Source of the DNA: a virus
Lineage: Duplodnaviria; Caudoviricetes
Virus record (IMG/VR): IMGVR_UViG_3300012983_000031
Coordinates: 96,001-160,000 of that record
DNA length: 64,000 nucleotides
Strand: one strand, 5' to 3'
Part shown: piece by piece, positions 44,675 through 57,049 of the stretch
How positions within the stretch are numbered: the stretch's first letter is position 1
Layout: the number at the start of each line of letters is the position of its first letter
Translations under genes and position numbers: made by a program
Notes under the pieces: model-generated
What the model saw: only the letters and a program-made list of their open reading frames with translations
What the model was told of the DNA's origin: nothing
Database searches by the model: none

Positions 44675-44748
44675 CGCGGGGTGGAGCAGTTGGTAGCTCG
44701 CCAGGCTCATAACCTGGAGGTCGCAGGTTCGATTCCTGCCCACCGCAA
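44675..44748 (+). tRNA. tRNA-Met(CAT), initiator-like
   Basis: CGCGGGG start, CCAGG-CTCATAA-CCTGG, GGTTCGATTCC; C1 unpaired, irregular acceptor stem. Confidence 0.85.
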
Positions 44749-44757
44749 CTAAGATGC

Positions 44758-44830
44758 GCCTCAATAGCACAGTGGCTAGTGCAGCTGATTTGTAATCAGC
44801 AGGTCGTTGGTTCGAATCCGACTTGAGGCT
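44758..44830 (+). tRNA. tRNA-Thr(TGT)
   Basis: Cloverleaf; GCTGA-TTTGTAA-TCAGC. Confidence 0.93.
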
Positions 44831-45098
44831 CAAATCCAAACTACCGAATGAGGATAATAATAAATTCGGCTGATATAGACGAAACTATCAGATGTAGCAT
44901 TAGCATCGGTTACTGGAACGAGTGGTGATCGTAAACAGATTAATAAACGTATAAGCCTGATGTGAATAACACAAAAGTTAGACGTGGGTGCAGTTTATGT
45001 TTCAAGAAAACGCTGAAATTGAAAGTCGTAACCAGCGATGTTGGTTTAATCTACTGCCCAGAACAACAAGATAAAAACTCAATACGATATCAGCACAC

Positions 45099-45173
45099 GG
45101 GGGATTAGCTCAGTTTGGCTAGAGCACCTGCTTTGCACGCAGGGGGTCATCGGTTCGAGTCCGATATCCTCCA
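45099..45173 (+). tRNA. tRNA-Ala(TGC)
   Basis: Cloverleaf with G3:U70. Confidence 0.95.
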
Positions 45174-45219
45174 CAAAATATGACAGTTTAGAGAAATTGT
45201 TCATTAATTTATGCATCAG

Positions 45220-45293
45220 TGTGTATTAGTTCAGCTGGTTAGAATGCCTGCCTGTCACGCAGGAGGTCACGGGTTCGAGTCCCGTATGCACAG
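45220..45293 (+). tRNA. tRNA-Asp(GTC)
   Basis: CCTGC-CTGTCAC-GCAGG. Confidence 0.93.
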
Positions 45294-45352
45294 CAAATCT
45301 TTGTCATTTTTGCCTACCTCGAAAAAGAGGATGACTTTTTTGACAAGAATAT

Positions 45353-45500
45353 GGAAGACATACAGCAAAACTTTGAATAAACTTCCTAGATTCAATTTTG
45401 TTTAACTATGGCAAAAACTTTAGTCTTCTGATTATTTAAGGCACGCGTACAGCAAAAAAACTTTTATTTTCATTTTGGGATCAAAAAAGTTTGCGTGCTG
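45353..45500 (+). ncRNA. Two tandem copies of an unannotated stem-RTACAGCAAAA-stem structured element
   Basis: GGAAGAC/GTCTTCT and GGCACGC/GCGTGCT closing stems; third copy at 50532-50589. Confidence 0.55.
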
Positions 45501-45505
45501 TTTTT

Positions 45506-45579
45506 AGGGTAGTATTTCAGTTGGTTAGAATTCTGCATTTGGGATGCAGAGGTCGCACGTTCGAGTCGTGTCTACCCTA
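45506..45579 (+). tRNA. tRNA-Pro(TGG)
   Basis: CTGCA-TTTGGGA-TGCAG. Confidence 0.92.
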
Positions 45580-45586
45580 CTACATC

Positions 45587-45682
45587 GGAGGGATAAGCCT
45601 AATTGGTAAGGCAGTGGTCTTGAAAACCACCAGTAATCAACTAAGACTTGATGTGTCGGTTCGAGTCCGACTCCCTCCTCCA
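45587..45682 (+). tRNA. tRNA-Ser(TGA)
   Basis: Long variable arm, encoded CCA. Confidence 0.9.
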
Positions 45683-45687
45683 GGAGA

Positions 45688-45778
45688 GGTGGGTTACCCA
45701 AGTTGGTGAAGGGGGGACATTGCTAACGTCCTAGGTCAGCTAATACCTGGCGCGGGGGTTCGAGTCCCTCACCCACCG
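45688..45778 (+). tRNA. tRNA-Ser(GCT)
   Basis: GGACA-TTGCTAA-CGTCC, long variable arm. Confidence 0.88.
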
Positions 45779-45868
45779 CAACAAAATAACAAACATATGA
45801 TGAACTTCATAAAACATAAGAAACAATAGTTCATCCGTAACCAGATGAGTTATGGATGAATGATTTAT

Positions 45869-45941
45869 GTATCCATAGCTCAGTAGGTAGAGCAACAGAC
45901 CTTTAATCTGTGGGTCGAGAGTTCGAGTCTCTCTGGATACA
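45869..45941 (+). tRNA. tRNA-Lys(TTT) with non-canonical C33
   Basis: ACAGA-CCTTTAA-TCTGT. Confidence 0.88.
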
Positions 45942-45962
45942 CAAAAGACACTAATGTGAAGC

Positions 45963-46943
45963 ATGAACAAAAATTCTACAATTCGTTCAGCACAGGTAAC
46001 AAAGAATGATGAGTTCTATACACAAACAAAAGATATTGAAAAGGAACTCCAATACTATGTAAAACATTTCAATGGAAAAATTGTTCTATGCAATTGTAAC
46101 GATGCAACGCATGATGGGTTTGCAAAGTATTTCAGCGCAAATTTTGAAAAGCTAGGTCTTAAGGAACTTATCTGCACATCATTTTCAAAGGATGGGCATG
46201 GTAGGATATATAGATATTATGGAATAAAAAACGGAAACATTGTTCCTGATATAGATGAATTGGAACAAACAGAAATGGAAGGAAACGGAGGGTTCAATAC
46301 AATTGAAGGAATTGAACTCATAAAGAAATCTGATATTATCGTAACAAACCCGCCATTCTCACTGTTTAGAGAATTTATATCCATCCTGGAGAAGTACAAT
46401 AAAAAATATCTTATCATGTCAAACGGAAACGCAGTGACATATAACGATATATTTCCGTTAATAAAGGATAATAAAATGTGGTTGGGTTGCACCCTTTTTG
46501 TTGGTGAAATGCCATTCTTCAGGGTGAATAATGACACAGACGTATCAAAGGGTGAATATTATTATGATGATGACGGGAACTTATATAAACAAGTTAACAG
46601 CATTGCGTGGTTTACAAATCTTGATCACAATAAAAGGCATAAACAAATTGAATTGTATAAAAAATATAACCCTGATGAATATCAGAAATATGACAATTAT
46701 GATGCAATAAATGTTGGAAAGACAAAAAATATTCCTATGGATTACGATGGTGTGATGGGTGTACCTATTACATTTTTGTCAAAGTATTGTCCAGAACAAT
46801 TTGAAATAGTTGATTGCAGAAATTATACATCTAATGATCATTTGAAAAATAAACCGTCATTGCTGATTAAAGATTCAGCAAGCGCAATAAACGGTAAACC
46901 TGTATATGCAAGAATAGCGATTAAACGAATTCCGAATAAATAA
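45963..46943 (+). CDS. Adenine-specific methyltransferase, M.EcoRI-like family (orphan)
   Basis: KNDEFYT, VLCNCND, VTNPPFSLFREF, YDGVMGVPITF. Confidence 0.88.
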   Translation: MNKNSTIRSAQVTKNDEFYTQTKDIEKELQYYVKHFNGKIVLCNCNDATHDGFAKYFSANFEKLGLKELICTSFSKDGHGRIYRYYGIKNGNIVPDIDELEQTEMEGNGGFNTIEGIELIKKSDIIVTNPPFSLFREFISILEKYNKKYLIMSNGNAVTYNDIFPLIKDNKMWLGCTLFVGEMPFFRVNNDTDVSKGEYYYDDDGNLYKQVNSIAWFTNLDHNKRHKQIELYKKYNPDEYQKYDNYDAINVGKTKNIPMDYDGVMGVPITFLSKYCPEQFEIVDCRNYTSNDHLKNKPSLLIKDSASAINGKPVYARIAIKRIPNK

Positions 46944-47359: not shown

Positions 47360-47453
47360 GCAAAAAAAATAATCTAATGCTTATATAATGTACTAAACGA
47401 TAAAAATTTTTTCGTGTTTGAATTAATTTTTATCGTTTTTTCTTTTCTATGTC

Positions 47454-47480
47454 AAATAAAAGTTGTAACTTTGCAACATC
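47454..47480 (+). promoter_or_regulatory. Host-type promoter driving the TnpB/Cas12-like locus (TAACTTTG 47466-47473)
   Basis: AAATAAAAGTTGTAACTTTGCAAC. Confidence 0.8.
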
Positions 47481-47514: not shown

Positions 47515-48789
47515 ATGGCTAATATCGCTGTCAAGTACAGAATATATCCTACCAAAGCACAAAGGAATTTTATTAATAAAAACATTGGTGCGAACAGATG
47601 GTTCTGGAACTATTGCATCGAGAAGAAGCAGAACGCTTATATTGAAAGCAAAAGAACAGGTGATAAAGCGTTGGCACGTATTGATGGTCAAACATTACGT
47701 GGTCATGTTAAAACATTAAAAGAAGAAGAAGAGACAAAATGGTTAAAGGATGTAAAGTTAAATTCCTTTAATTATGTTGTTGAACATTTTGATGAAGCAT
47801 ATAAAAGGTTTTTTGAAAAAAAAGCTGGAAAGCCAAAGAAGCATAAAAGAACAAGATCTGGCGCATTCACAACTCAAATTACTAAAGCTAGAAATATAGA
47901 AAATCTTATTGATTATAAGAATAATCGTATATATCTTGGTAAATTTATCAAAAACGAAAATGGTGAACCAGAACGTTTTGTAAAAGCCAAGATTCATAGA
48001 AAGGTTGATGGTACAATCATGAACATGACAATATCAAAAGATATTGATAATAGATACTATATATCTTTTTGTTTGAAGGTTGATGATTGGAAAAAGCCAA
48101 AGTCTCCAACATTAGATGGAACTATTGGTATAGATATGGGAATGTCAGAGGCTGGCGCTCTTTACGGATCTGATTTAAAAGTTAGATATGGATCTGATAA
48201 TATTGCTGGACTAACGGATAAAATAAACCGTATGGAAAGGCATTTAAAGAAATGGAGCAAAATAAAGTCAAAACGTTATAGCATTGAACGTAAGAAAAAA
48301 CGTACAGGGCAATCCAAAGGATATGTTGAAGCTGTTGAAAAATGTGCTGTTATACAATGCAAAATAAATCGTTTAAAATCTTATATAACTCATATGATGA
48401 CATCATCGATTGTGCATTGTGAGAATATTGATTCAATCGCAATAGAATCTTTGGATGTTAAAGAGATGATCGAGAAAAAGACAACAAACAATTTAAAAGA
48501 ACAAAAGGCTCGCAAGAGGAGAGCAAGAAGAAACCGCATCGTTCGTCTTGGCGAAATTTCCAGGCAACTTGAGTATAAAGCTGAAATAAATGGAAAGAAT
48601 TTTGTTAAAATTAATAAATGGTACCCATCTTCAAAAACATGTTCAGTGTGTGGATATAAAAATGATAATCTGAAATTAACTGACAGGTCTTGGGTTTGCC
48701 CTCACTGTCATACAGAACATCATAGAGATTTCAATGCTGCTGAAAATATTAAAAATGAAGGGTACAGGATGTTAACAAGTAAGAATTGA
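47515..48789 (+). CDS. tnpB: CRISPR-associated TnpB-like RNA-guided nuclease (miniature type V / Cas12-like effector)
   Basis: IS605 OrfB-type N-terminus (KYRIYPT...RWFWN), RuvC-I GIDMG (D207), RuvC-II IAIESL (E311), CSVCG/CPHC zinc finger, RuvC-III HRDFNAA (D405); adjacent to a CRISPR array. Confidence 0.92.
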   Translation: MANIAVKYRIYPTKAQRNFINKNIGANRWFWNYCIEKKQNAYIESKRTGDKALARIDGQTLRGHVKTLKEEEETKWLKDVKLNSFNYVVEHFDEAYKRFFEKKAGKPKKHKRTRSGAFTTQITKARNIENLIDYKNNRIYLGKFIKNENGEPERFVKAKIHRKVDGTIMNMTISKDIDNRYYISFCLKVDDWKKPKSPTLDGTIGIDMGMSEAGALYGSDLKVRYGSDNIAGLTDKINRMERHLKKWSKIKSKRYSIERKKKRTGQSKGYVEAVEKCAVIQCKINRLKSYITHMMTSSIVHCENIDSIAIESLDVKEMIEKKTTNNLKEQKARKRRARRNRIVRLGEISRQLEYKAEINGKNFVKINKWYPSSKTCSVCGYKNDNLKLTDRSWVCPHCHTEHHRDFNAAENIKNEGYRMLTSKN

Positions 48790-48799
48790 TCATAATATA

Positions 48800-49030
48800 A
48801 AACGTTGGTCGCGTTTCAGACCCTACCCGTGTGTAGCGGGAATGTAATGTCCGTGGACAGATTTGTCGATTTAATCGATTGAACTTTTGTTCAACAGTGG
48901 CGTTCTTGATACATTTGTAATCGTAGAATAGTTGCGGAATGTGATTTGAAGCGGAAAAAATGAAATGACATCGGTCATTTCACCAAGCAGAACGTAAGTT
49001 CTGTATACAATATTTCTCCATAGCTCTTTG
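48800..49030 (+). ncRNA. Putative tracrRNA / omega-RNA-derived scaffold
   Basis: Anti-repeat segments at 48915-48924 and 49008-49022; several hairpins, including a perfect 9-bp stem at 48961-48982. Confidence 0.6.
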
Positions 49031-49055
49031 ATATACACAATGTTATACAACATAA

Positions 49056-49532
49056 GCTGTTTATTATGGCGAAATGTTGGATGGTTACAACTTAAACCAC
49101 ATGAATGATGATGATCCAGCGCTGTTTATTATGGCGAAATGTTGGATGGTTACAACTACGGGACAGTTCAAGAGAATAAATGATGGCTGTTTATTATGGC
49201 GAAATGTTGGATGGTTACAACGATATTCATAAGGCTCCTTCCTGTTCTAAGCTGTTTATTGTGGCGAAATGTTGGATGGTTACAACCCTACGATCTTTAA
49301 GCCATCTTTCATTGATGCTGTTTATTGTGGCGAAATGTTGGATGGTTACAACAGACAGTTGCACCAGATGACTGTTTATTGTGGCGAAATGTTGGATGGT
49401 TACAACTAACCCATTCGCCTCCTTGATGACGAGCCAGCTGTTTATTATGGTGAAATGTTGGATGGTTACAACTAGGATTTCTCCCTTCAGATTCTTGCTG
49501 TTTATTGTGGCAAAATGTTGGATTGTTACAAC
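49056..49532 (+). CRISPR. CRISPR array, 8 repeats (36 nt) and 7 spacers
   Basis: Repeat GCTGTTTATTRTGGCGAAATGTTGGATGGTTACAAC at 49056, 49121, 49186, 49251, 49317, 49371, 49437, 49497; spacers 29, 29, 29, 30, 18, 30, 24 nt; repeats degenerate toward the distal end. Confidence 0.97.
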
Positions 49533-49576: not shown

Positions 49577-49888
49577 ATGGCAGCTATTCAAGAAATTTTT
49601 AATGCAGCGTTTTGGTACATGGCACCAATTCTTGTTGCGCTTTCTACAACTGTTACGGGTCTTGTGAATCAATGGTTCAAAATCCCTGATAAGTTTAAGC
49701 AACTTGCATCCTGGATTGTGGGCGCAGTTCTTTCCTGTGGAGCAATCTTCTTTGGATTCCTTGGTGAAAGCATAGGATGGCCAAGTTACATTGCGTTAAG
49801 CATCGTCGTGGGTCTATCATCAAATGGTATCTATGACATTGAAGCTATTAAGAAAATTATAGATTCATGGTTTAATAAGAAGAAATAA
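49577..49888 (+). CDS. Holin-like membrane protein
   Basis: Three TM helices, GLSSNGIYD motif, basic C-terminus. Confidence 0.65.
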   Translation: MAAIQEIFNAAFWYMAPILVALSTTVTGLVNQWFKIPDKFKQLASWIVGAVLSCGAIFFGFLGESIGWPSYIALSIVVGLSSNGIYDIEAIKKIIDSWFNKKK

Positions 49889-49909: not shown

Positions 49910-49946
49910 TCGATCCGTTGTCATCTTACAATGGGTCGATTTTTTT
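49910..49946 (+). terminator. Rho-independent terminator
   Basis: TCGATCCGTTGT/ACAATGGGTCGA plus T-tract. Confidence 0.75.
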
Positions 49947-50078
49947 ATTTTTTCGTTAAAATGTTTTTCTATGTCGAAAATAAGTTGTATCTTTGCAACG
50001 GAATTAAAAATAATTACAAAATGAATATCTCATATGTTCTTAGAGAGTTCAGATGTTACATTAATTGTAAGTTGAAAC

Positions 50079-51298: not shown

Positions 51299-51736
51299 AT
51301 GAAGAAAATTATCACGTTTCTCGTAGCAGCGTTCATCGCTGTAGCTCTTAATGCACAGGAAGAAGATTTCCTGCACAAGAAATGGCACTATGTTGTGGAT
51401 GCTATCGCCACAGTTGAAAGCGGAAAAAACCCTAAAGTAGTTTCAAAGAATGGTCTTTATGTCGGCTACCTTCAGATAGCAAAGATTATGGTAGACGAAT
51501 GTAACAGAATTAACGGTTATAAGAAATACACCTATGCAGACCGTTATAATAAAGAGAAAAGTATAAACATGTTCATTGATTTCCAGGAGCACTACAATCC
51601 TGATTGCAATGTTGAGAAAGCAATCCGCCTATGGAATTCTGGTGATATAAAGTGCATGGAAAGGAAAGCAAGAACAGAAGGTTATTTTCAACGTGTGATG
51701 AAACATTACGTTGTACAGGAAGAAAAAATTATGTAA
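51299..51736 (+). CDS. Secreted lytic transglycosylase (SLT/lysozyme-like)
   Basis: Signal peptide; AIATVES catalytic Glu; GYLQI; AIRLWNSG. Confidence 0.75.
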   Translation: MKKIITFLVAAFIAVALNAQEEDFLHKKWHYVVDAIATVESGKNPKVVSKNGLYVGYLQIAKIMVDECNRINGYKKYTYADRYNKEKSINMFIDFQEHYNPDCNVEKAIRLWNSGDIKCMERKARTEGYFQRVMKHYVVQEEKIM

Positions 51737-52701: not shown

Positions 52702-52775
52702 GCTCCAGTAGCTCAGTTGGTTAGAGCAACGGACTGTTAATCCGTGTGTCGGTGGTTCGAGCCCACCCTGGAGCG
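52702..52775 (+). tRNA. tRNA-Asn(GTT)
   Basis: ACGGA-CTGTTAA-TCCGT. Confidence 0.95.
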
Positions 52776-53078
52776 CAAAATAAGAAAAATAAGTAATTGT
52801 ACCACAGACCGCTGAAAGCAGTAAGGATTCCAAATTAGATAAATCAAATAGGTAGCCGTACTACCGAATTTACGCTTGTGGACTATCCAACTATGGATGA
52901 ACGTGGTTTACCACCTAAAAAGTAGTGATAGGTTGAAGCAAGAAATAAAATGTATGAGATTCATAGATTTTCATAGAATTTTATATACGGTAATATCATA
53001 TGTAAAGACTTACAGGCGTACAGCTATTAAGAGGAAATAAACGTTAAAGCGAGGTTGTTCCTTTATTTTTCTTATTAT

Positions 53079-53162
53079 GGCTTCATGGTGGAATGGTAGA
53101 CACGAGGGACTTAAAATCCCTTGGGCATTGCGCCCGTGCGGGTTCGAGTCCCGCTGAAGCTA
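53079..53162 (+). tRNA. tRNA-Leu(TAA)
   Basis: AGGGA-CTTAAAA-TCCCT, long variable arm. Confidence 0.94.
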
Positions 53163-53167
53163 CAACC

Positions 53168-53249
53168 GTTCCTGTGGCGGAATTGGTAGACGCGTCAGAC
53201 TTAGGATCTGATGTCTCATGACGTGCAGGTTCGAGTCCTGTCAGGAACA
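53168..53249 (+). tRNA. tRNA-Leu(TAG)
   Basis: TCAGA-CTTAGGA-TCTGA. Confidence 0.94.
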
Positions 53250-53254
53250 CAAAT

Positions 53255-53326
53255 TGCCCTGTAGTATAATTGGTAGTACAACAGATTTTGGTTCTGTCGG
53301 AACAGGTTCGAATCCTGTCAGGGTAA
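53255..53326 (+). tRNA. tRNA-Gln(TTG)
   Basis: ACAGA-TTTTGGT-TCTGT. Confidence 0.92.
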
Positions 53327-53350
53327 CAAGTAACAAACTTAAGCATAAAT

Positions 53351-53524
53351 ATGTTAAGACGTGATGAATTGATAGAACTTTCTGGACAGGTCATTAATGG
53401 CATGATGTCTGCTGACAATAACATATGGGTACAGTTGCTTGACAGAACTGTACACATTCAGGCAGCAAAGACAGCTGTAGCGATTGCAAATGACATGCTT
53501 AAGGAAATTGATAAGCTTGAATAA
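53351..53524 (+). CDS. Small hypothetical protein (57 aa) within the tRNA cluster
   Basis: MLRRDELIELSGQVINGMMSAD...AVAIANDMLKEIDKLE. Confidence 0.65.
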   Translation: MLRRDELIELSGQVINGMMSADNNIWVQLLDRTVHIQAAKTAVAIANDMLKEIDKLE

Positions 53525-53525
53525 T

Positions 53526-53600
53526 CTCTGGTTGGCTGAGTGGTCAAAGGCGACGGTCTGCAAAACCGTAAAACCAGCGGTTCGAATCCGCTACCAGAGT
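53526..53600 (+). tRNA. tRNA-Cys(GCA)
   Basis: ACGGT-CTGCAAA-ACCGT. Confidence 0.92.
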
Positions 53601-54179
53601 CTAATTATAGTTGACAAAATCAATGAGTAGTATTTCTCTGTTTGTTCCTTTGCTTATATTTTGTTTATTATTGAAGTAAGCGTAGATTCTTGGGAACCAA
53701 TCGTCAATTAATCTCGGTGCCATAACCGAAGAATACTTTCCTTCTTCCGATGGTTTGTGTTTGAATGAATAATCATTTTCATAATTATACAAATTATTGC
53801 CGCACCAAAACTTGATGTCTGGCAATTCTTTTTCTATTGCACTGCAAAAATTACGGAATCGTTCGACATTATTTGCAGTGTATTCTTTTTTTGTCCTTGC
53901 TTCGTGCAACACTCTGACGTAGCAGTCTTTCTTGTTGTTGATGTATTGAAGATCCTTTGCCATTTGTTTAGGTGTGTAGTCATACACATATTTTCCATGA
54001 GCGAACAATGTTTTACCGTCTTTGTCATATTTGACACGAAGATCGAAGCATCTTACTCCATATTTTTCATATTGTGTCTGGATGTCATAATCCTGACATT
54101 GAGCCATAAAGTGAAACAGATTCATCCACCATTTTTTACCTTTCAAATATGACCATGAATTGTGTGATCCGAGTATCAT
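53601..54179 (-). CDS. PI-PLC-like phosphodiesterase (truncated TIM-barrel type)
   Basis: GSHNS, AQCQ...IQTQ...GVRCFDLRV...HG X-domain motifs. Confidence 0.75.
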   Translation of the reverse strand: MILGSHNSWSYLKGKKWWMNLFHFMAQCQDYDIQTQYEKYGVRCFDLRVKYDKDGKTLFAHGKYVYDYTPKQMAKDLQYINNKKDCYVRVLHEARTKKEYTANNVERFRNFCSAIEKELPDIKFWCGNNLYNYENDYSFKHKPSEEGKYSSVMAPRLIDDWFPRIYAYFNNKQNISKGTNREILLIDFVNYN

Positions 54180-56685: not shown

Positions 56686-56758
56686 GCAGCAATAGCTCAT
56701 CTGGCAGAGCGTCAGGCTTCCATCCTGAAGGTGGTGAGTTCGATCCTCACTTGCTGCT
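56686..56758 (+). tRNA. tRNA-Gly(TCC)
   Basis: TCAGG-CTTCCAT-CCTGA; directly after a host-type promoter (56668-56675). Confidence 0.9.
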
Positions 56759-56954
56759 CAAACAACATTAGGCTCATCATAGTTTGGCTTTAGGATAAGC
56801 GCGGTTGAGGATTTGATCACCTTGGCGACGTTGTGCTGACACCGATGGCGAATTAAGATAAGAATTGTAACACTACGAGACGGCTCTGTGAGTGTCTGAC
56901 ATGATAGGTTACGCCTGCAGGAATTCTGATTTTGATTATATGTGAGTCTAATTC

Positions 56955-57028
56955 GCTCTCTTAGCTCAGTTGAATAGAGCAACAGATTTCTAATCTGTGG
57001 GTCGAGGGTTTGAATCCCTCAGAGAGTA
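56955..57028 (+). tRNA. tRNA-Arg(TCT)
   Basis: ACAGA-TTTCTAA-TCTGT. Confidence 0.9.
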
Positions 57029-57049
57029 CTATTTTAAAATCAAAACATT

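Follow-up and report, generated by a model that had tools for sequence, protein, structure and literature searches.

A TnpB-like nuclease of a large phage is accompanied by a CRISPR array in a Bacteroidota class 2 format that host Cas1-Cas2 may extend in trans

A CRISPR array that is located on a viral genome next to a TnpB-like nuclease gene, and without cas1 or cas2, raises the question of where its repeat came from and which enzyme provides it with spacers. Here, we have analysed such an array in a stretch of 64,000 nt, referred to as the window, which corresponds to bases 96001-160000 of the IMG/VR virus record IMGVR_UViG_3300012983_000031 (220,295 bp, estimated to be ~60% complete). The public runs that contain the TnpB/array locus are bovine gut metagenomes. 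A preliminary description of the array had proposed that its repeat was captured from, or mimics, a host array, so that the class 2 Cas1-Cas2 of the host would extend it in trans. The best overall explanation, which in our judgement has about an even chance of being correct, is that the array stores the guides of a phage-borne, TnpB-derived system, that its format is old, and that its spacers were most likely inserted by Cas1-Cas2 of the host acting in trans.

The nuclease gene, a conserved scaffold RNA with its anti-repeat, and the array of 36-nt repeats form one cassette on one strand. In the direction of the plus strand, this cassette starts with a promoter-like 35-nt element containing a TAnnTTTG motif (47443..47477), which was found by a repeat-family search and lies ~40 nt upstream of the gene for the 424-aa nuclease (47515..48789). 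The gene is followed by the scaffold RNA, which resembles an omega-RNA or a tracrRNA (48818..49055) and includes the anti-repeat (49008..49023), and by the array (49056..49532), whose leader end is at 49056 and which begins 266 nt 3' of the nuclease ORF. A 103-aa ORF lacking a Pfam match (49577..49888), also present in near-identical phage contigs, is located 3' of the array, and a terminator-like hairpin followed by a T run (49910..49949), detected by a sequence scan, closes the cassette. A second copy of the promoter-like element (49965-49999, plus strand, 89% identical and in direct orientation) heads the next cassette. We take TAnnTTTG to be the -7 box of Bacteroidota promoters, and the element is therefore presumably a promoter, a reading that follows the published Bacteroides promoter consensus. 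Similar TAnnTTTG boxes are present upstream of the scaffold RNA in two relatives (L012 and L015), where it seems likely that the scaffold and the array have a promoter of their own.

The 424-aa protein contains the Pfam domains HTH_OrfB_IS605 and Cas12f1-like_TNB, and scores 216 bits against the NCBIfam model guided_TnpB. The closest solved structure is ISDra2 TnpB (E-value of 7e-31); the catalytic columns of the two proteins align, and the RuvC residues D207, E311 and D405 as well as a CxxC...CxxC zinc finger are retained. The phage locus shares with ISDra2 TnpB and its omega RNA (PDB 8EXA, 8H1J) the order of the domains, the catalytic triad, the zinc finger and the position of the scaffold just 3' of the gene. 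It differs in that transposon ends and TnpA are absent, that an array replaces the single guide, and that the scaffold is functionally split into a part bearing the anti-repeat and the repeats themselves. The 220-kb record contains a single copy of TnpB and no Y1 transposase (TnpA), and the locus is thus not a mobile IS200/IS605 element. We infer from these sequence comparisons that the array stores the guides for a type V (V-U-like) CRISPR system that is derived from TnpB and borne by the phage, and for which RNA-guided interference with DNA is predicted. No Cas13b was detected in the 220-kb record or in control genomes, while the same model gave 809 bits on the bacterial locus L037.

Other miniature nucleases that combine a tracr-like RNA with CRISPR repeats are LaTranC (PDB 9JFO) and Cas12f (type V-F), and the repeats of Cas12f are ~36-37 nt long. 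The similarity of the phage nuclease to these proteins is much weaker, with E-values of 8e-14 for LaTranC, confined to the C-terminal third, and of 1e-3 for Cas12f. The Cas12 hacker (Cas12p) proteins of phages are 500-700 aa long (bioRxiv 10.1101/2025.01.20.633832), and this family was ruled out as an assignment on the basis of size and of the ranking of PDB matches.

The array consists of eight in-register repeats of 36 nt on the plus strand (49056-49091, 49121-49156, 49186-49221, 49251-49286, 49317-49352, 49371-49406, 49437-49472 and 49497-49532), which end with ACAAC and start with GCTGTTT, or with ACTGTTT in one copy, as had been described. The spacers measure, in order, 29, 29, 29, 30, 18, 30 and 24 nt, such that the earlier wording "mostly 29-30-nt" holds for five of the seven. 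The three repeats on the tnpB side are identical, and relative to these the following five have 1, 1, 2, 1 and 3 substitutions, the last repeat being the most degenerate. The preliminary description had placed the leader next to tnpB on account of this gradient, and its placement is borne out by the degenerate distal repeat and by the nuclease gene and the anti-repeat being on the same strand as the array. The repeat is confined to the array: a search of the 220-kb record returned eight forward and no reverse matches, and a control with the reversed pattern gave none. A scan of JGI metagenomes with a 20-mer of the repeat yielded only two single chance matches outside arrays, and searches of IMG/VR with the protein and with the repeat returned no close relatives. 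In four repeats, which are of the variant with A at position 11, the minus strand contains a pair of sigma-70-like boxes, TTGTAA-16-CATAAT (49063-49090, 49128-49155, 49193-49220 and 49444-49471). These boxes recall the repeat-borne promoters of II-C arrays; they were set aside as promoters because the consensus of Bacteroidota differs.

The scaffold RNA opens with a hairpin, ACCCTACCC...GTGTA...GGG, that is common to all related loci. Its sequence is conserved (57% mean column identity in alignment A1, which covers 8 lineages), its helices covary, and the CCY at its 5' end pairs with RGG of the repeat. The anti-repeat can form 15 of 16 pairs, including G-U, with positions 9-24 of the repeat. 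An equivalent anti-repeat of different sequence is present in each related lineage, 20-60 nt upstream of the first repeat, and the complementarity is kept. The anti-repeat was assessed lineage by lineage, and the z-scores of its complementarity across lineages were only -1 to -3.4. The helix that it forms was not returned by a consensus fold of the scaffold with the first repeat, because the part that includes the anti-repeat aligns poorly. Between lineages, the centre of the repeat varies together with the anti-repeat of the phage, whereas the termini stay fixed. Since the scaffold pairs through its 5' end with the GG that is conserved in the repeat, part of the conservation of the repeat is imposed by the fold of the guide RNA and not by an integrase. 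According to the mechanism that we propose, the locus would be transcribed from the tnpB side, the repeat would pair with the anti-repeat, and the nuclease would use guides composed of a repeat and its downstream spacer against DNA, probably that of rival phages.

At least nine phage lineages have the same combination of nuclease, scaffold and 36-nt array, the identity between their nucleases being 35-45%. These homologues are encoded by other large phage contigs, of up to 380 kb, in which the start of the scaffold is followed by 36-nt repeats ending with ACAAC and by spacers of mostly 29-31 nt. Such arrays are located 3' of P0002, P0003, P0005, P0009, P0014, P0024, P0029 and L064, and a degenerate one is present at P0008. 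Both the scaffold motif and the array were absent from 79 more distant phage TnpBs in IMG/VR, and the loci equipped with them therefore constitute a delimited clade of CRISPR-associated TnpBs. This clade is of the kind catalogued as TnpB-derived type V-U* systems, V-U6 to V-U45 (Altae-Tran et al. 2023, PMC10691335), and seen earlier as V-U variants in huge phages (Al-Shayeb et al. 2020, PMC7162821). Features in common with these systems are a small RuvC nuclease that resembles TnpB and belongs to the typical DRDxN clade, an array located 3' on the same strand, the absence of cas1, cas2 and cas4, and a nuclease gene that is immobilised (a single copy, no TnpA) within a phage genome. The present clade could not be assigned to a numbered V-U branch. 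In one relative, L012, the nuclease gene is separated from the scaffold RNA by an inserted 100-aa ORF with DUF7352 (L012:7334-7636), and in another, L015, a second TnpB-like ORF of 547 aa lies 3 kb downstream (L015:7206-8849).

In order to compare the phage repeats with those of bacteria, a tandem pattern was built solely from columns that do not vary among three phage lineages, requiring two successive repeats 28-31 nt apart, and was scanned against 185,579 species with one genome each. The pattern matched 17 loci, versus ~4 expected by chance according to our own calculation, and nearly all of these belong to Bacteroidota. The matches with multiple copies are arrays located directly 3' of Cas13b, in which the repeats measure 36 nt, the spacers 30 nt, and the far repeat is degenerate, a layout as in the phage locus. 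Aligned in register and without gaps, the phage and VI-B repeats are on average 58% identical, and up to 78%, whereas 5000 position shuffles gave 26 +/- 4%; when only positions 7-30 are considered, the identity is 45%, versus 27% for the shuffles. None of the shuffles reached the observed identities. Four lineages that were outside the design of the pattern gave 58% for the full repeat and 47% for positions 7-30 against the VI-B repeats.

According to the preliminary description, type II-C repeats of Bacteroidota have the form GTTGT...AAACAGC, with spacers of about 30 nt. This statement proved accurate: multi-copy arrays with a 47-nt repeat of that form and spacers of 29-30 nt are present in ~10 of 401 Bacteroidaceae genomes, and in one genome, which also carries a 36-nt VI-B-like array, genes for Cas9 and for type II Cas1 and Cas2 lie directly upstream of such a 47-nt array. 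Read from the leader, the II-C repeats begin with GCTGTTT or GTTGTT and end with CACAAC, and a Flavobacterium has a II-C repeat of 36 nt whose ends are the same. The array format of the phage is that of Bacteroidota class 2 systems, with a G-N-TGT start on the leader side, an ACAAC end next to the spacer and spacers of 29-30 nt. Judged from the sequences, the whole-repeat match is with Cas13b (VI-B) arrays, and the match with Cas9 (II-C) arrays consists of the two termini and the spacer size. The class 2 resemblance noted earlier thus stands for the termini, the polarity and the spacer size, but the best match is to VI-B repeats on the plus strand over 36 nt and not to the reverse complement of II-C repeats, which agree at the ends only and, in Bacteroidaceae, are 47 nt long.

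A third setting in which the format occurs is provided by five Sphingobacterium loci (L029, L030, L033, L036 and L038), which encode an ECF sigma factor and a short TnpB-like protein and contain degenerate, irregularly spaced 36-nt repeat copies of the VI-B/phage format. The sigma-linked TnpB was rejected as a member of the phage nuclease clade since it has no significant BLASTP similarity to it. Remnants of the format beside an unlinked TnpB argue that the format follows something other than the effector. Taken together, the VI-B, II-C, sigma-linked and phage data indicate that termini, leader polarity and spacer length are common to the arrays of four unrelated effectors.

Is the phage repeat, then, a recent copy of an array of its present host? 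The agreement of its ends with the commoner 47-nt II-C repeat of Bacteroidaceae read from the leader (the first 7 nt and the last 5 nt are equal, as are 11 of the 14 bases at the leader end) could be taken to favour such an origin. However, the two repeats differ in length, 36 versus 47 nt, and the ends are also the same in the sister lineages, apart from one or two changes, so that the match that is specific to the window amounts to about two bases. Moreover, the repeat of the window is the least VI-B-like of the clade, being 42-56% identical to VI-B repeats, and no pattern-fitting array closer to it than ~56% was found in the genomes of the 185,579 species. Recent capture or copying of a host array, as had originally been put forward, is therefore very improbable in our view, also given that the format extends across the clade and that the repeat centre co-varies with the anti-repeat of the phage. 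The low identity to any bacterial array, the position of the window repeat as the least VI-B-like one and the same ends in its sisters point to a format that is probably ancestral to the nuclease clade, in which case the present repeat would not be a fresh copy. Either an early member of the clade would have docked onto an array type that already existed in Bacteroidota, or the array types may have an older common origin.

The 220-kb record contains neither Cas1 nor Cas2, and both are also absent from the relative G406 (335 kb, 96% complete), whose array is regular at 29-30 nt, and from the 5-6 kb around the arrays of all relatives that were fetched. The earlier proposal had named adaptation genes of the phage itself and dissimilar repeat termini as outcomes that would speak against it; cas1 and cas2 were found in neither the record nor the 96%-complete relative, and the termini do resemble those of Bacteroidota class 2 repeats. 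It could be argued that adaptation genes, or an unrecognised integrase, reside in the ~40% of the genome that is absent from the record, which is estimated to be 60% complete, and a few phage CRISPR systems do have cas1 and cas2. Given the consistent absence of Cas1 and Cas2 from the record, from the 96%-complete relative and from the surroundings of the related arrays, we consider this improbable. The CRISPR systems of huge phages are generally devoid of adaptation genes (PMC7162821).

Arrays of the present format can also persist in bacteria without a resident integrase, since Pfam Cas1 was found nowhere in the assemblies of two bacterial genomes with long Cas13b arrays, G003 (L037, 18 repeats) and G004 (L024, at least 27 repeats). 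In the phages, 24 of 37 unique spacers are 29-30 nt long, and the remaining 13 are off-size (15-28, 31 or 35 nt), whereas a spacer length of 29-30 nt is nearly invariable in the bacterial arrays that were examined. The off-size spacers of the phages look like the result of decay rather than of active upkeep. The arrays also bear traces of rearrangement. The 13-repeat array of L015 (3211-4037) interleaves two repeat variants, one of which resembles the repeat of lineage L012 and is the one that the anti-repeat fits better; the last two 19-nt spacers of L018 (L018:6760-6905) are near-duplicates, which indicates that a repeat-spacer unit was duplicated in tandem at the trailer end; and L019, a twin of L018, differs from it solely by lacking spacers 2-4. 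Recombination, deletion and duplication thus clearly shape the phage arrays, as evidenced by the mosaic array, the internal three-spacer gap and the duplicated terminal unit.

Spacer turnover can be followed most closely between the window and a near-identical phage (98.9% identity over nuclease and scaffold), which have only two middle spacers in common. Each of them carries its own repeat variant, which is uniform throughout three leader-side units, as would result from copying of the first repeat into new ones. Their trailer-end units differ as well, and the polarity of the changes is not settled by phages that differ at both ends of their arrays; the polarised spacer gain among related phages that had been looked for is consequently not demonstrated. 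Deletion accounts for part of the spacer differences between these near-identical phages. Contigs from four bovine-gut runs break inside the repeats, only the known second variant was recovered from them, and they are therefore uninformative on heterogeneity at the leader end.

These observations bear directly on a different view, namely that the format was inherited together with the nuclease, that the 36-nt repeat and its ends are required by this TnpB and its scaffold RNA, and that the array is a slowly decaying heirloom, to which no integrase of host or phage adds spacers today and in which the only changes are deletions, duplications and recombination events between co-infecting phages. 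The presence of the format in all sampled lineages of the clade, the pairing of the repeat centre with the anti-repeat and of the conserved GG with the 5' end of the scaffold, the off-size spacers and rearranged arrays, and the differences between the window and its near-twin at both ends are all in line with this view. On the other hand, spacers of 29-30 nt and of unrelated sequence must once have come from an integrase that measures them, and 98.9%-identical phages carry wholly different leader-side spacers between uniform new repeats. In addition, the constraint exerted by the effector is by itself insufficient to explain why the same format accompanies Cas13b, the sigma-linked TnpB and, as far as the termini are concerned, Cas9. 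We therefore regard a purely inherited, decaying array as unlikely, although it is an explanation that has to be taken seriously.

Another way in which the phage could obtain spacers is by homologous recombination between its array and host arrays of the same format, a kind of spacer theft that would not involve an integrase acting on phage DNA. The format is indeed held in common, and the L015 array is a mosaic of two repeat variants. Such exchange would, however, need near-identical repeats, and the best bacterial repeats are only 42-56% identical to that of the window, none closer having been found, which renders this route highly improbable.

The combination of an integrase-like modal spacer length and of spacer turnover with the absence of cas1 and cas2 from the phages makes insertion by host Cas1-Cas2 the most likely source of the spacers. 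Action of the host enzymes in trans on the phage array is plausible, and by our estimate falls slightly short of an even chance. New spacers would enter at the tnpB-proximal repeat during infection, in the same way as the type II-C integrase fills the VI-B array of Flavobacterium columnare, where acquisition in trans by the II-C Cas1 was proven by deletion of cas1 (PMC8092290). Selection for being served by the integrase of the host would keep the termini of the repeat fixed while its centre drifts along with the anti-repeat.

The VI-B arrays (Hoikkala et al. 2021, PMC8092290) resemble the phage array in other respects as well. Both have a 36-nt repeat, spacers of ~30 nt, the order effector, leader and array, a degenerate far repeat and no adaptation genes of their own; the VI-B arrays further have a leader-distal motif in common with II-C arrays, and their repeats show 42-78% in-register identity to those of the phage clade. 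In F. columnare, the leader-distal GTTGT is the only part that the VI-B and II-C repeats have in common (PMC8092290). The phage system differs from VI-B in that its effector is a predicted DNA-cutting TnpB instead of Cas13b, in that its guide would be read as repeat-then-spacer and be paired to an anti-repeat, and in that the array sits in a virus, so that an integrase could only be provided by the infected cell. The II-C arrays of Bacteroidaceae resemble the phage array in their terminal motifs (GCTGTTT or GTTGTT by the leader and CACAAC at the opposite end), leader polarity and spacers of 29-30 nt, and differ from it by their 47-nt repeat (36 nt in a Flavobacterium), their unrelated repeat centre and the adjacent cas9, cas1 and cas2 genes. 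Furthermore, a II-C array is transcribed towards its leader (PMC8092290), unlike the reading proposed for the phage array.

It should be mentioned that the II-C repeats of the likely host family are 47 nt long, and that a ruler-type integrase from such loci would therefore not reproduce a 36-nt repeat. The same problem of 47- versus 36-nt repeats has been raised for VI-B arrays (PMC8092290). In the acquisition model of the latter study, the PAM end of a new spacer points towards the leader. We infer that, combined with transcription from the leader, this orientation would place the motif 5' of the target, the side on which TnpB and Cas12 recognise their own motifs.

Searches for targets covered several sources. 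Allowing mismatches, no protospacers of the spacers of the window and its relatives were found in the phage's own 220 kb or in the fetched loci; a comparison of whole arrays of four lineages with GenBank phages at a loose E-value gave only chance-level matches, the best of which overlaps repeat bases; and exact 23-mers of two spacers had no match in IMG/VR. Comparison of the fetched bacterial loci with the phage returned only tRNA-like and chance matches. Because no protospacer was found, there is no acquisition motif that can be compared with that of a host integrase.

A broader interpretation can also be proposed, which we put forward as a tentative possibility. Bacteroidota and their phages may use one "public" array format, defined by a 36-nt repeat with fixed ends and spacers of 30 nt, which would be written by the class 2 integrase of the host. 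Cas13b, the phage TnpB clade and the sigma-linked TnpB would have become, or stayed, effectors of this format by means of an RNA adaptor, and a virus would obtain guides against its rivals from the cell that it infects. A single array format that is used by different effectors and across the phage-host boundary was not found in PMC10691335, PMC7162821 or the other literature cited here.

Should host integrases indeed write phage arrays, this would amount to a phage-against-phage immunity that is updated by the infected cell, and, if true, it would account for the way in which phage CRISPR systems that lack adaptation genes, of which there are many, are kept up to date. A common format would also offer a concrete route by which a transposon nuclease can become a CRISPR effector, with its scaffold RNA docking onto an array type that is already served by an integrase. 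This docking route is complementary to a model in which duplicated segments of the omega RNA give rise to arrays (PMC10691335). From a practical point of view, the ~420-aa nuclease with its defined scaffold and repeat is one of at least nine natural variants whose guide parts co-vary.

With respect to the surroundings of the locus, fifteen tRNA genes, all on the plus strand and arranged in three clusters (44676-45942, 52702-53601 and 56686-57029), flank the region of the cassette. An EcoRI-type adenine methyltransferase of 326 aa (45963-46943; Pfam E-value of 7e-115) is encoded two genes upstream of the nuclease and is also present in the near-identical contig L009, and a 145-aa ORF at 51299-51736 shows weak similarity to a lytic transglycosylase (SLT) domain (E-value of 3e-5).
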